Assembly: GCA_046734435.1 (NCBI GenBank)
Contig: JBKPRE010000018.1
Coordinates: forward strand, 2,471 to 66,470
Source of the DNA: Pseudomonadota bacterium
GTDB lineage: Bacteria > Pseudomonadota > Alphaproteobacteria > Rhizobiales > Xanthobacteraceae
DNA: 64,000 nt
Reading direction: 5' to 3'
Part shown: one piece after another, positions 36,788-61,677 of the stretch
Numbering within the stretch: position 1 is the first letter of the stretch
Layout of the letters: every line of letters starts with the position of its first letter
The notes under the pieces: model-generated
The model's database searches: none
Told to the model about the DNA's origin: nothing
The model's input: the letters and a program-made list of their open reading frames with translations, nothing else
Program-made: the position numbers and the translations under genes

Positions 36788-36900
36788 GTCATTCCGGCCG
36801 AGGCCGCGGAACGGTTGAGAGCCGGAATCCAGACCCACAAAAGGCATTGAGATGGTTCTGGATTCCAGGTTCGCGCCTAATCGGCGCGCCCCGGAATGAC
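36788..36900. repeat. REP-like inverted pair, GTCATTCCGG...CCGGAATGAC type
   Basis: GTCATTCCGG...CCGGAATCCA ... TGGATTCCAGG...CCGGAATGAC between cysJ and cysI. Confidence 0.85.
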
Positions 36901-45393: not shown

Positions 45394-45443
45394 AACCGAG
45401 GGGTCGGTGTTTGCCTCATGGCCTGCGAGGGCGGAGACTGGTA

Positions 45444-46460
45444 ATGGACGCCCTGCCCCAGTTCCGCATCGTCACGCCGCGCACGGTCGAGGAAGCAATC
45501 GCCGCGCGCGCCGACAATCCGAACGCCATGCCGCTCGGCGGCGGCACCGATCTTGTCGTCAACATCCGCCGCGGCATCGTCGCCCCGCCGGTTCTGATCG
45601 ACATGAACCGCGTGCAGGAGCTGCACAAAATTCACGCCGATGAGACATCGATCGAGCTCGGCGCCTCGGTGACGCTGAGCGAGATCGCCGCGCATCCCGC
45701 CATCAACAGGCACTATCCCGTTGTTGCGCAGGCGGCCGCGCATATCGCCGGCCCCACCCACCGCAACATGGGCACCGTCGGCGGCAATCTCTGCCTCGAC
45801 ACCCGCTGCATCTTCTATAACCAGAGCGAATGGTGGCGTGACGCCAACAATCACTGCCTGAAGACCACCGGCACGATCTGCCACGTCGCGCCGAAGAGCC
45901 GCGGCGTGTGCTTTGCGACCTTCTCGGGCGATCTTGCGCCTGCTTTGCTCACGCTCGGCGCCGAGGTCGACATCGCCGGCCCGTCCGGCAAGCGCACCAT
46001 TCCGCTCGAAAAGCTCTATATCGGCTTCGCCCGCCAGGACGTGCCGGTCAGCGAGACCCAGGGCGACGGCAAATATTATCTGTCGCTGCGCCCGGGCGAG
46101 CTCGTCACCGCCGTGCGCGCGAAAAACACGGCCGGTTTACGCTCCGCCTACGACAAGATCCGCATCCGCCGCTCGATCGAGTATCCGGTCGCCGGCGTTG
46201 CCGTCGCGCTGAAGAAGAACAAAGGCAAGCTCGCTGATCTGCGCATCGGCTTCACCGGCACCAATCCGCGCCCGGTGCTGCTCGCCGGCACCGCCGAGCT
46301 GTGCGGCGGCGGGCTCGACGATCGCGTCATCAAGGGCCTCGATGCGCTGGTGCGCGACCAGATCATGCCGATGAAGACGACGTTCACGCCCGGCCATTAC
46401 CGCCGGCGCGTCGCCGGCGTGCTGGCGCGCCGCCTGCTGACGCGGCTGTTCGAAAGCTGA
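45444..46460 (+). CDS. hcrB: 4-hydroxybenzoyl-CoA reductase beta subunit (FAD, extra [4Fe-4S])
   Basis: GGGTDL, RNMGTVGGNLCLDTRCIFYNQSEWWR, HCLK...CHVAP...CFATFSGDLAP. Confidence 0.9.
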   Translation: MDALPQFRIVTPRTVEEAIAARADNPNAMPLGGGTDLVVNIRRGIVAPPVLIDMNRVQELHKIHADETSIELGASVTLSEIAAHPAINRHYPVVAQAAAHIAGPTHRNMGTVGGNLCLDTRCIFYNQSEWWRDANNHCLKTTGTICHVAPKSRGVCFATFSGDLAPALLTLGAEVDIAGPSGKRTIPLEKLYIGFARQDVPVSETQGDGKYYLSLRPGELVTAVRAKNTAGLRSAYDKIRIRRSIEYPVAGVAVALKKNKGKLADLRIGFTGTNPRPVLLAGTAELCGGGLDDRVIKGLDALVRDQIMPMKTTFTPGHYRRRVAGVLARRLLTRLFES

Positions 46461-46477: not shown

Positions 46478-48187
46478 GTGGACATCTTCACCGAGCGCAG
46501 GCCCTACAACGCCGTCTCCGATTTCGTCGACGCGCATATCGCGGCCGGGCGCGGCAACAAGGTCGCCTTCGTCGATCCCGAGCGCTCCATGACGTATAGC
46601 GAATTGCGGGCGCGCAGCGTGCGCTTTGCCAATGCGCTGCGCGCGCTCGGCATCGAGGAGGAGCAGCGCGTCGCGCTGCTGCTCAATGACACCGTCGACT
46701 ATCCGGTCGCGTTCTGGGGCGCGATCCGCGCCGGCTGCGTCGCGATCCCGCTCAATGTCTATCTGACGCTGCCGCAATATGCCTACATCCTGGCCGATTG
46801 CCGCGCGCGGGCGCTGGTGGTCGAGGCGTCGCTGCTGGAAACGATCGCTCCGGTGCTGGACAAGCTGCCGCGCAAGCCGGTGATGATCGTGGTTGGTTCC
46901 CCTCCCGGTCATTCCGGGGCGCGAGCGCATAGCGCGTTGAAGACGCGCGTAAACGCGCTTATGGCGAGCGAACCCGGAATCCAGACGCAAGCACCGCGCC
47001 CGCATCTGGATTCCGGGTCCGGCGCTGACGCGCCGTCCCGGAATGACAGAAGAATGCACGATTTCGAAACCCTCATCACCGACGCGGATCCGACGCCCTT
47101 GACCGCCGACACGTTGTCGGACGAAGTCGCATTCTGGTTCTACACCTCCGGCTCGACCGGCGACCCGAAGGGCGTCAAGCACGTCCACTCCAACCTGATG
47201 GCGACCGCGAAACTGTTCGGCCAGGGCATTCTTGGCATTACCGAGAACGACGTCGTGCATTCCGCCTCCAAGCTGTTCTTTGCCTACGGGCTTGGTAATG
47301 CGCTGACCTTCCCGCTCTCGGTCGGCGCCACCGCCGCGCTGTGGCCGCACCGGCCGTCGCCCGAGGGCGTGTTCGACATCATGCGCACGCACCAGCCGAC
47401 CATTTTCTACGGCGTGCCCTCGCTCTACACCGCGCTGCTGGCGCACAAGGACATCGGCAAGGGCGCCGGCTCCGACCGCCTGCGGCTCTGCGTCTCCGCG
47501 GGCGAGGCCATGCCCGCGCATATCGGCGAACGCTGGCGTGAGGTGACCGGCGTCGACGTGCTCGACGGCCTCGGCTCGACAGAGATGCTCAACACCTTTC
47601 TGTCAAACCGCCCGGGCGACATTCGTTACGGCTCGACCGGCAAGCCCGTGCCCGGCTACGAGGCGCGCATCGTCGACGAGCACGGCCGCGAGCTCGGCGA
47701 CGGCGAGATCGGCGAGCTGATCGTGCGCGGCCCGTCGGCCGGTGAAGGCTACTGGAACCAGCGCGAGAAGAGCCGCCGCACCTTTGCCGGCGAATGGACG
47801 CACACCGGCGACAAGTACCGGCGCGATGCCGAGGGCTACTATTATTACTGCGGGCGCACCGACGACATGTTCAAGGTCTCCGGCATGTGGGTGTCGCCCT
47901 TCGACGTCGAGGCCGCGCTTGTGTCACATGAAGCCGTGCTCGAGGCCGCCGTCATCGGCAAGGAAGATGCCGACGGGCTGATCAAGCCGAAGGCCTTCAT
48001 CGTGTTGCGCAACGGCTACGAGGCCGACGACGGCCTGCTCGAGACCCTCAAGCACCACGTCAAGGACAGAGCCGGCCCGTGGAAATTCCCGCGCTGGATC
48101 GAAGCGCGCGATCAACTCCCGCGTACAGCGACTGGCAAGATCCAGCGTTTCAAATTGCGCGAGGAAGACGCCCGCGCGGGACGGTGA
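46478..48187 (+). CDS. Benzoate/4-hydroxybenzoate-CoA ligase family protein with an in-frame repeat-derived insertion
   Basis: FYTSGSTGDPKG, KLFFAYGLGN, CVSAGE, DGLGSTEMLNTF, HTGDKY, GRTDDMFKVSG, LPRTATGKIQR. Confidence 0.9.
   Translation: MDIFTERRPYNAVSDFVDAHIAAGRGNKVAFVDPERSMTYSELRARSVRFANALRALGIEEEQRVALLLNDTVDYPVAFWGAIRAGCVAIPLNVYLTLPQYAYILADCRARALVVEASLLETIAPVLDKLPRKPVMIVVGSPPGHSGARAHSALKTRVNALMASEPGIQTQAPRPHLDSGSGADAPSRNDRRMHDFETLITDADPTPLTADTLSDEVAFWFYTSGSTGDPKGVKHVHSNLMATAKLFGQGILGITENDVVHSASKLFFAYGLGNALTFPLSVGATAALWPHRPSPEGVFDIMRTHQPTIFYGVPSLYTALLAHKDIGKGAGSDRLRLCVSAGEAMPAHIGERWREVTGVDVLDGLGSTEMLNTFLSNRPGDIRYGSTGKPVPGYEARIVDEHGRELGDGEIGELIVRGPSAGEGYWNQREKSRRTFAGEWTHTGDKYRRDAEGYYYYCGRTDDMFKVSGMWVSPFDVEAALVSHEAVLEAAVIGKEDADGLIKPKAFIVLRNGYEADDGLLETLKHHVKDRAGPWKFPRWIEARDQLPRTATGKIQRFKLREEDARAGR
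46908..47047. repeat. Intragenic REP-like element, GTCATTCCGG...CCGGAATGAC type
   Basis: Right arm 47007-47047 is identical over 41 bp to 52679-52719; the reading frame stays open. Confidence 0.92.
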
Positions 48188-52616: not shown

Positions 52617-52719
52617 GTCATTCCGGGGCGCGCCGAAGGCGCGAGGCCGGAATCCATAACCCGCAGCGCTGCGGAGTATGGATTCCGGGTCCGGCGCTGA
52701 CGCGCCGTCCCGGAATGAC
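52617..52719. repeat. REP-like inverted pair, GTCATTCCGG type
   Basis: GTCATTCCGGGGCGCGCC...CCGGAATCCA ... TGGATTCCGGG...CCCGGAATGAC. Confidence 0.9.
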
Positions 52720-54330: not shown

Positions 54331-54621
54331 CTAACGAGTGATATCGCGATAGAGATCGCGCCACTGCGGATTGGTCATTTCAACGAGCTGCAGTTTCCAC
54401 AACCTTGGCCAGTGCTTGATGTTCTTCTCACGCTGAATTGCCGGCAGTGGGGCATCGTACTGTTCAAAGTGAACCAACATTTTAAGTTGATATCGTTTCG
54501 AAAACCCGTTGACCAAGCCTTCGCGATGTTCGTACGCGCGGCGAACGAGATCACTGGTGACGCCAACATACAATGTTCCGCGCGGCTTGTCGGTCAGAAC
54601 GTAAACCCAATAGCCATCCAT
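54331..54621 (-). CDS. Small stand-alone GIY-YIG nuclease family protein (96 aa)
   Basis: YWVYVL...TLYVGVTSDLVRRAYEH...FEQY...AIQREKNIKHW...NPQWRDL; alternative start at 54636. Confidence 0.88.
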   Translation of the reverse strand: MDGYWVYVLTDKPRGTLYVGVTSDLVRRAYEHREGLVNGFSKRYQLKMLVHFEQYDAPLPAIQREKNIKHWPRLWKLQLVEMTNPQWRDLYRDITR

Positions 54622-54700
54622 GGCCGACGGCATCACGGACCGTCGGACCCGACAATTGCCCGTTCAGAGGATGACTGATTGACGGACGGCCTCTTCGCTC

Positions 54701-61468: not shown

Positions 61469-61677
61469 GTCATTCCGGGACGCCGCGAAGGGGCGGACCC
61501 GGAATCCAGATGCCAGCACAGATTTCGTTCTAATTCCGGGTTCGCTCGCTATCGCTTGCGCCCCGGAATGACGACTGTGGACCTCTCCACGTCATGCCCG
61601 GCTATATGCCGGGCATCAACGTCTTTATGCGGCAAACTCGCCAAGACGTGGATGGCCGGAACAAGTCCGGCCATGAC
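61469..61677. repeat. Two adjacent REP-like inverted pairs (61469-61572 GTCATTCCGG type; 61591-61677, 87 bp)
   Basis: GTCATTCCGGGA...CCCGGAATGAC; GTCATGCCCGG...TGGATGGCCGGAACAAGTCCGGCCATGAC. Confidence 0.88.

Follow-up and report, generated by a model that had tools for sequence, protein, structure and literature searches.

An in-frame palindromic repeat dimer in a loop of a benzoate/4-hydroxybenzoate-CoA ligase gene of an uncultured Xanthobacteraceae bacterium

The stretch of DNA analysed here, henceforth the window, comprises 64,000 nucleotides of a Xanthobacteraceae genome and contains an open reading frame (ORF) for a benzoate/4-hydroxybenzoate-CoA ligase (46478–48187, + strand; GTG start, 569 aa). 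Within this ORF lies a 140-nt palindromic element (46908–47047, + strand), termed family A, which is a head-to-head dimer of CGTC-type repetitive extragenic palindromic (REP) hairpin units and corresponds to translated residues 144–190. The reading considered highly probable is that a REP dimer was inserted in frame into a permissive loop of the ligase and is translated there, the peptide being a tolerated passenger while the hairpin is kept as DNA. The class of element and its in-frame copies have already been described, and the ligase insert joins that class. Beyond the literature consulted are the density and variety of repeat alleles found in one loop, their exchange in short tracts, and the covariation of intragenic hairpins over speciation.

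The insert and the ligase that carries it

The ends of the element, GTCATTCCGGG...CCCGGAATGAC, are inverted repeats of 14 nt with 93% complementarity. With at most one mismatch allowed, the terminal 11-mer was matched 10 times in the window against a chance expectation of 1.6, and 0 of 100 shuffles reached 10. The element touches 47 codons without a stop and is read as G144HSGARAHSALKTRVNALMASEPGIQTQAPRPHLDSGSGADAPSRND190. A preliminary description made from the sequence had proposed a complete palindromic element lying in frame and free of stops within the ligase ORF, and both its position and its open frame were confirmed.

In the 104-nt core of the dimer the order is GTC, ATTCCGGG, an inner stem-loop, CCCGGAAT and CCA, followed by a spacer of about 23 nt and then TGG, ATTCCGGG, an inner stem-loop, CCCGGAAT and GAC. 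The two hairpin units of the ligase insert are inverted to each other, with their GTC tags facing outward. The left unit (46908–46983, + strand; inverted repeat I9) has a GTC tag, preceded here by a G, and contains an 8-bp stem of ATTCCGGG (46911–46918) with CCCGGAAT (46973–46980) and a CCA tail. Its inner stem-loop is enlarged by a nested 36-nt palindromic module, CATAGCGCGTTGAAGACGCGCGTAAACGCGCTTATG (46928–46963, + strand), which contributes 12 codons, about AHSALKTRVNALM. The inter-unit spacer (46984–47006, + strand) differs in sequence among alleles. The inverted right unit (47007–47047, + strand; inverted repeat I10) consists of TGG, ATTCCGGG (47010–47017), the inner hairpin TCCGGCGC-TGAC-GCGCCGTC, CCCGGAAT (47037–47044) and GAC. 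Folded as RNA, the whole element reached -85.4 kcal/mol (z = -7.5).

The gene was compared with 120 homologs at 75–100% identity and with 80 species-representative loci, the latter mostly from metagenome-assembled genomes of Pseudolabrys and other Xanthobacteraceae. Insert-free orthologs, P0045 among them, measure 522–528 aa and have a loop of 15–22 residues, such as VGGKKHPGAHAFE or VGAIEDDKAAFPGRDVHLFE, compared to 61 aa in the window ligase. The corresponding DNA segment of such orthologs spans 84 nt and that of the window gene 222 nt, so that the latter shows a net gain of 138 nt (46 codons). Since the frame is open and the gain is divisible by three, the repeat is translated into about 46 extra residues. 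Solved homologs are likewise without the loop; residues 142–194 of the query align with 153–162 of 2V7B, and the PDB homologs are contiguous across the site. The unusual length of the protein had been pointed out against benzoate-CoA ligase sizes of roughly 520–530 aa, and the insert-free relatives have a short loop, and no equally long segment, at this site.

Assignment of the ORF was clear, with 736.6 bits against TIGR02262 (benz_CoA_lig; cut-off 375.25), benzoate-CoA ligases 2V7B and 4EAT as the closest PDB relatives, and the name 4-hydroxybenzoate-CoA ligase given to close homologs by the Joint Genome Institute (JGI). The ANL/core motifs are present in the ORF and invariant across the alignments. 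Among insert-bearing alleles, nonsynonymous divergence (dN) was 0.03–0.07 and synonymous divergence (dS) 0.22–0.41; the resulting dN/dS of ~0.1 indicates that the ligase has been kept under purifying selection with the insert in place. On this sequence evidence the insert-bearing protein is presumably made and active.

That the insertion inactivated the gene, or that it is an assembly artefact, is extremely improbable. The genome is a draft assembly of 253 contigs, ~91% complete, and a 48%-identical paralog at C187 could cover the function of a lost ligase. Against this, the exact 569-aa protein recurs on 10 contigs, each assembled independently from a different JGI metagenome sample, and its gene neighbourhood, including the 4-hydroxybenzoyl-CoA reductase genes, has the same order throughout; a one-off misassembly is thereby excluded. 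The intact ORF with its full set of ANL motifs, the low dN/dS and a structural model that folds like solved ligases all stand against loss of function.

This model was built with AlphaFold (AF2) on species-level orthologs and genome paralogs and reached a mean confidence score (pLDDT) of 87.4 and a pTM of 0.84. In a Foldseek search it matched 2V7B (TMt 0.88), 4EAT and 4WV3, all of the ANL fold. Its sole low-confidence stretch is 141–190, in which residues 166–189 fall below 50 pLDDT; the strand at 135–139 and the strand/helix at 193–202 that flank this stretch both exceed 90. A weak helix was predicted at 148–163, over the nested module, with a pLDDT of 55–70. The insert is thus predicted to add ~46 mostly disordered residues in a surface loop of the N-terminal domain, placed before HDFETLI and the TSGSTGDPKG P-loop. 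The probable surface-loop position ahead of HDFETLI and TSGSTG, suggested at the outset, agrees with both the AF2 model and the PDB alignments, and outside the insert the model is benzoate-CoA-ligase-like.

Two features of the genomic setting bear on the pathway. The beta subunit of 4-hydroxybenzoyl-CoA reductase is encoded directly upstream of the ligase (45411–46460, + strand; TIGR03195, 409.6 bits against a cut-off of 404.55). The second benzoate-CoA-ligase-like gene mentioned above (C187:18687–20288, - strand; 534 aa, 48% identical) is without the insert; with boxBC also encoded in the window, its presence suggests that the box and 4-hydroxybenzoate routes each have a ligase of their own.

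Age of the insert and variation of the loop

The last 41 nt of the element, corresponding to the right unit, are identical at 41 of 41 positions to an intergenic sequence at 52679–52719. This identity had been noted correctly in the preliminary description, which took it to suggest a recent event, and the latter conclusion did not hold. In orthologs P0006, P0007, P0008 and P0012 the same dimer, 104 nt long, occupies the identical nucleotide position with the identical codon phase, and the backbones of these orthologs have diverged from that of the window gene by dS 0.22–0.40. The 41-nt arm is letter-identical in P0007, and 7 units within 3 mismatches of it were counted in the genome. The arm is therefore a conserved sequence type, and its match to a nearby copy gives no date for the insertion. 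Missing from the four 104-nt alleles, the nested 36-nt module is restricted to the nearest alleles, P0001–P0005 and P0013.

On the favoured reading, the dimer would have entered the codons of a short loop in an ancestor of a Pseudolabrys-like sub-lineage of Xanthobacteraceae, with a net gain of 102 nt first and the nested module, adding 36 nt, later. The enzyme would have kept working, the insert being a tolerated passenger at the protein level. The permissive loop would then have collected REP families, nested modules and deletion remnants, with short recombination tracts shuffling them among strains.

A survey of the loop in orthologs at least 75% identical revealed several forms besides the family A element of the window ligase. 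Family B is a head-to-head dimer of CGTC-3-like units, CGTCATGGCCGGG-CTCGT-CCCGGCCAT-CCA, read as the peptide SWPG...RPSTSS...DVDARDK.GHDG. A variant combines B units with another spacer (...RLGTQ..LSEIAGTSPAMTAE). B and A dimers occur as a composite, six codons apart, in P0016 and L049; a nested form has, for example, IAVQRTACFRTPM inside B; and a tandem form is present in P0108. Remnants of the type GHSGSGA.APSRND (P0017, P0036) correspond to a 99-nt deletion between ATTCCGGG direct repeats, and further remnants read SWPGGHDG (P0105), SWPGLSRHDG (L007) and KPSWH (P0106). For the B variant, L016/L009 represent an empty-versus-filled sister pair, with a 90-nt insert after ...GCATCG. In a tree calculated without the loop columns the loop states were scattered, requiring at least 34 changes, at least 8 of which were forced by well-supported branches. 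A literal count of independent insertions from this tree was rejected, as the comparison of A and B alleles indicates that recombination moves the loop.

That comparison is provided by P0010, a 558-aa allele in which family B is present; relative to the window sequence its background is 99.8% identical over 3405 nt upstream and 99.35% downstream. The two show ~140 differences, and 121 of these lie within 46800–47199. The A/B differences being confined to a tract of ~250 nt, the loop is exchanged between strains as a recombination cassette of about that size. The loop is permissive and its content freely exchangeable among close relatives.

The same data also bear on a possible recruitment of the added peptide to some new role in the protein, such as an interaction surface or regulation of the ligase, and such recruitment is very unlikely. 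The insert has been retained to dS ~0.4 with a fairly conserved translation (GHSGA...LDSGSGA.APSRND), and a weak helix is predicted for the nested module. The conservation, however, follows nucleotide palindromy rather than amino-acid properties, and UvrD and valyl-tRNA synthetase (ValRS), described below, read the same element in another frame (VIPGR...PGMT). Strains that are 99.8% identical have an unrelated repeat peptide in the loop, deletion remnants and empty loops are common, and the pLDDT falls below 50 at 166–189. The earlier statement that a repeat is creating new protein sequence is literally true, but the exchangeable content of the loop speaks against a specific new function.

With the loop of one enzyme sampled across more than 100 natural alleles, the data differ from earlier work, in which in-frame insertions of REPs and Rickettsia palindromic elements (RPEs) were mostly catalogued per genome. 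The sample covers the whole life cycle of an insert, from the entry of two or more REP families at points separated by a few codons to nested and tandem forms, internal deletions, footprints and exchange in short recombination tracts, with the gene under purifying selection throughout.

Several minor observations concern the same loop. The A and B alleles (the latter L081–L083) come from metagenome samples with neighbouring JGI numbers. The insert-free loop DNA of L001 and L005 (...ACGATTCCCGGCGCA...) contains TTCCCGG(C/G)GC, which resembles the REP stem ATTCCGGGGCGC and could reflect a target preference, a footprint or chance; 'empty' loops (...ATTCCCGGCGCA...) are suggestive of possible family A footprints. 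Single frameshifts in the ligase gene of L061, L064, L068 and L075, which belong to one series of metagenome assemblies (MFD...), may be sequencing errors. In L075 there is, in addition, a long family B insert within which a further segment is nested.

Hairpin conservation and relation to known repeats

At the DNA level the repeat is not decaying, its hairpins, tag and tail bases having been kept. Family A alleles diverge by 0.08–0.18 within the element, compared to a dS of 0.22–0.41, whereas the 60-nt coding flanks of the element diverge by 0.18–0.27; the outer 16 nt of the element diverge by no more than 0.06. Low divergence of the element next to high divergence of its flanks argues against the view that this is explained by the whole cassette having been transferred recently. 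Pairing was evaluated in left units of orthologous intragenic copies, 9 in all, of which UvrD supplied six and the ligase three. All stem cells were paired (126/126), four pairs were altered on both sides, and 14 cells were compensatory. No shuffle matched the observed pairing or covariation, and slid controls were 14–44% paired.

Conservation of the hairpins would be due either to selection, acting on a single-stranded DNA (ssDNA) site for an Ssn nuclease or on mRNA structure, or to self-correcting processes of template switching or gene conversion. Template switching that corrects a quasi-palindrome, and gene conversion in which other copies act as donors, could each yield such a compensatory pattern with no selection involved. 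Many intragenic left units have inner loops of GCGAAGC, CCGAAGG or similar, and the d(GCGAAGC) mini-hairpin is exceptionally stable as DNA. Should this apply here, it would hint at DNA as the molecule in which the relevant structure forms.

By its architecture of tag, stem and tail the insert fits the CGTC-tagged REP superfamily, which is defined by a CGTC or TGTC tag (CCTC being tolerated), an 8–9-bp stem starting with AT, a 4–5-nt loop and a CCA tail (Di Nocera, De Gregorio, Rocco 2013, PMC3733652). Head-to-head dimers predominate in this superfamily, no transposase is linked to it, and the hosts are mainly alphaproteobacterial, including Bradyrhizobium and Rhodopseudomonas palustris with CGTC-1/CGTC-3 (PMC3733652). 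Intragenic in-frame copies have been published, often in DNA-repair genes such as UvrD/Rep; odd loops are on record for Bradyrhizobium CGTC-1, and grouped CGTC elements were described as rare (PMC3733652).

Both units of the ligase insert have the 8-bp AT-starting stem ATTCCGGG/CCCGGAAT followed by CCA. Family B in the orthologs has 5-nt loops (CTCGT, ACAAG), and an in-frame copy in UvrD is present in this genome as well. A pattern search of the genome returned 24 dimers with outward tags. Stem, tail, outward dimers and the lack of a transposase match the published description, as does the GTC of the tag, and the ligase insert fits membership in the superfamily on these sequence features. Points of difference from the published elements are the Pseudolabrys-like uncultured host and the accumulation of several REP families, nested modules and remnants in one loop.

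Two other models of mobile repeats were rejected. No match to Y1_Tnp/RAYT (PF01797) was obtained in the ~91%-complete genome and the tag is GTC rather than GTAG, which is at odds with a REPIN/RAYT system. No target-site duplication was found at the 24 dimers, 18 of which have no flanking direct repeat while the others have 1–2 nt, a chance level, and a MITE model (miniature inverted-repeat transposable elements) was discarded on this ground. A 7-nt direct repeat, GCGAGCG, beside the nested module was also dismissed as a target duplication because its copies pair as an imperfect stem; at other copies of the nested module the flanks are complementary, not direct. Bacterial MITEs inserted in frame are on record, for example in Coxiella (PMC5896051; review PMC10969869). 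The ligase insert resembles in-frame MITEs as a small non-autonomous repeat adding a peptide segment, and differs from them by having no cognate insertion sequence and by being a REP dimer instead of terminal inverted repeats around a core.

The parallel with RPEs drawn in the preliminary description proved apt at the level of architecture, since RPE-4 and RPE-6 were placed in the CGTC superfamily (PMC3733652). As cited there from Ogata et al., RPEs sit in frame within Rickettsia ORFs. In the same paper, dRS3 was equated with Neisseria CGTC-1. The ligase insert is like an RPE in being a palindromic repeat translated within a presumably functional gene at a permissive position. It is unlike RPEs in that the host is free-living and GC-rich and does not have a reduced intracellular genome, and presumably in its sequence; RPE-1 is a separate, longer element.

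A candidate for an enzyme acting on such hairpins is encoded in the window itself. A small GIY-YIG nuclease ORF of 101 aa (54331–54636, - strand; Pfam PF01541, E = 5e-11), a candidate Ssn-family ssDNA nuclease, lies 7.3 kb from the ligase insert and is one of three small GIY-YIG genes in the genome (the others at C154:7423–7701 and C18:69284–69559). Enzymes of the Ssn family cut ssDNA beside NTS hairpins, the consensus of which, CGTCATTCCCGCGMAVGCGGGAATCYRG, encompasses dRS3 (Chenal et al. 2025, PMC11893778). In Neisseria SsnA, three bases before the palindrome are key for cleavage and the C just after it for binding; the enzyme is inactive on RNA (PMC11893778).

Both ligase units keep GTC-ATTCC...GGAAT-C, matching the CGTCATTCC...GGAATCYRG flanks of NTS. 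Small GIY-YIG genes, candidates for the Ssn subfamily (cd10448) of the NTS/SRM-Ssn system, lie among the repeats. Unlike the ligase insert, NTS has a short loop and was described around genes, intragenic copies being unmentioned in PMC11893778. The ligase-insert units are putative substrates of the local GIY-YIG enzymes. Each nuclease possibly pairs with one repeat type, the genome having several CGTC-type families.

It is possible, though not the favoured reading, that selection retains the repeat within the gene for what it does as nucleic acid, either as an Ssn site in ssDNA that shapes recombination or transformation there or as a strong mRNA hairpin influencing translation or stability, with the peptide as a by-product; this explanation overlaps with the one preferred here and does not exclude it. 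Consistent with it, conservation is higher in the element than at synonymous sites or in its own coding flanks, the stems of the 9 intragenic copies are fully paired with compensatory changes, including those of UvrD across six species, and GTC and the C after the palindrome are intact in a genome with GIY-YIG genes. The A/B mosaic tract centred on the repeat, the low z value of the RNA fold and the GCGAAGC loops point the same way. Self-correction by template switching or gene conversion would, however, leave the same pattern, many close relatives thrive with a loop that is empty or carries a remnant or a different repeat, SsnA is inactive on RNA, and a role of Ssn at the ligase units is putative. 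Retention of hairpins in the ligase and in UvrD bears on this choice between selected DNA or RNA elements and self-correcting palindromes, and it provides a concrete system in which the recently described Ssn nucleases could be tested.

A broader and rather doubtful proposal is that intragenic CGTC/SRM hairpin dimers are maintained DNA elements, recognised by Ssn-like nucleases, which set recombination breakpoints within genes. Permissive loops such as those of the ligase and UvrD would then serve as landing pads, with repeats homing to earlier ones and with exchangeable cassettes of repeat-derived peptide arising there and being swapped between strains.

Insertion of a REP dimer into a permissive loop, translated as a passenger and kept as a DNA hairpin, remains highly probable in spite of several points that weigh against it. 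The sample contains no clean empty-versus-filled pair for family A, and the dimer is 104 nt long while the net gain is 102 nt, leaving the exact junction undefined. All of the sequences are metagenome-derived, and assemblers could mis-thread the interior of a repeat, though not its presence, absence or family. Tree-based counts of gain and loss are inflated by recombination. In the ligase copy the left tag reads GGTC, not CGTC, and the right tag, taken as its reverse complement, reads TGTC; genome-wide, the base before GTCATTCCGG is C in 34 cases, T in 30, G in 22 and A in 9, with GTC invariant. Finally, the inner stem-loop of family A is 15 nt (51 nt with the nested module) instead of the 4–5 nt of CGTC REPs.

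Further copies in the window and the genome

An nhmmer search of the genome identified 34 family A loci. Three dimers lie elsewhere in the window, namely an intergenic dimer of 103 nt after a GAF histidine-kinase gene (52617–52719), the right end of which is the 41-nt match to the ligase insert, and dimers at 36788–36900 and 61469–61572. A census of family B units within long ORFs of this genome gave only spurious read-through ORFs upstream of real starts.

The genome scan for additional in-frame copies that the preliminary description had proposed located them in UvrD, in ValRS and in an RluB tail. In the UvrD/PcrA-type helicase gene (C50:10841–10938, - strand) the family A dimer lies between DEYQD (motif II) and VGDDDQSIY/motif III and adds 45 residues at a site where E. 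coli UvrD is contiguous (240–243). Six species of the genus (L098–L103) share the UvrD insert at this site, with variable spacers and compensatory stem changes, and the site is empty outside the genus, in other families of the order. The dimer in the ValRS gene (C81:1682–1788, - strand) reads ...EELWAVTSQP-VIPGRAGSANPESR...GRPGMT-GRDLLALSQWP..., and the PDB structure 4XKZ of ValRS is contiguous across this site. The C-terminal tail of a pseudouridine synthase resembling RluB contains a further dimer (C114:34487–34587, - strand), which is translated as RHSGAGQRPEPGIQ...PRND.

UvrD and ValRS read the element as VIPGR...PGMT, in a frame other than that of the ligase, and the third frame ends in a stop because ...GGAATGAC reads GAA TGA. 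For annotation, segments of the types HSGAR...SRND, VIPGR...PGMT and SWPG...GHDG in Xanthobacteraceae proteins are best regarded as REP insertions, not domains.

The nested 36-nt module of the ligase insert recurs in the loops of copies at C102, C107, C187, C20 and C195. Two kinds of nested palindromic module were observed in REP-unit loops, CATAGCGCG...CGCGCTTATG and CAATGGGTCCGCGC...GATGACAGG, by which the dimers become 126–146 nt long. Copies with nested modules are located at C102:~10100, C107:16594–16732, C187:60666–60811, C20:10210–10335, C195:35153–35283, C210:3555–3693 and C134:2278–2407.

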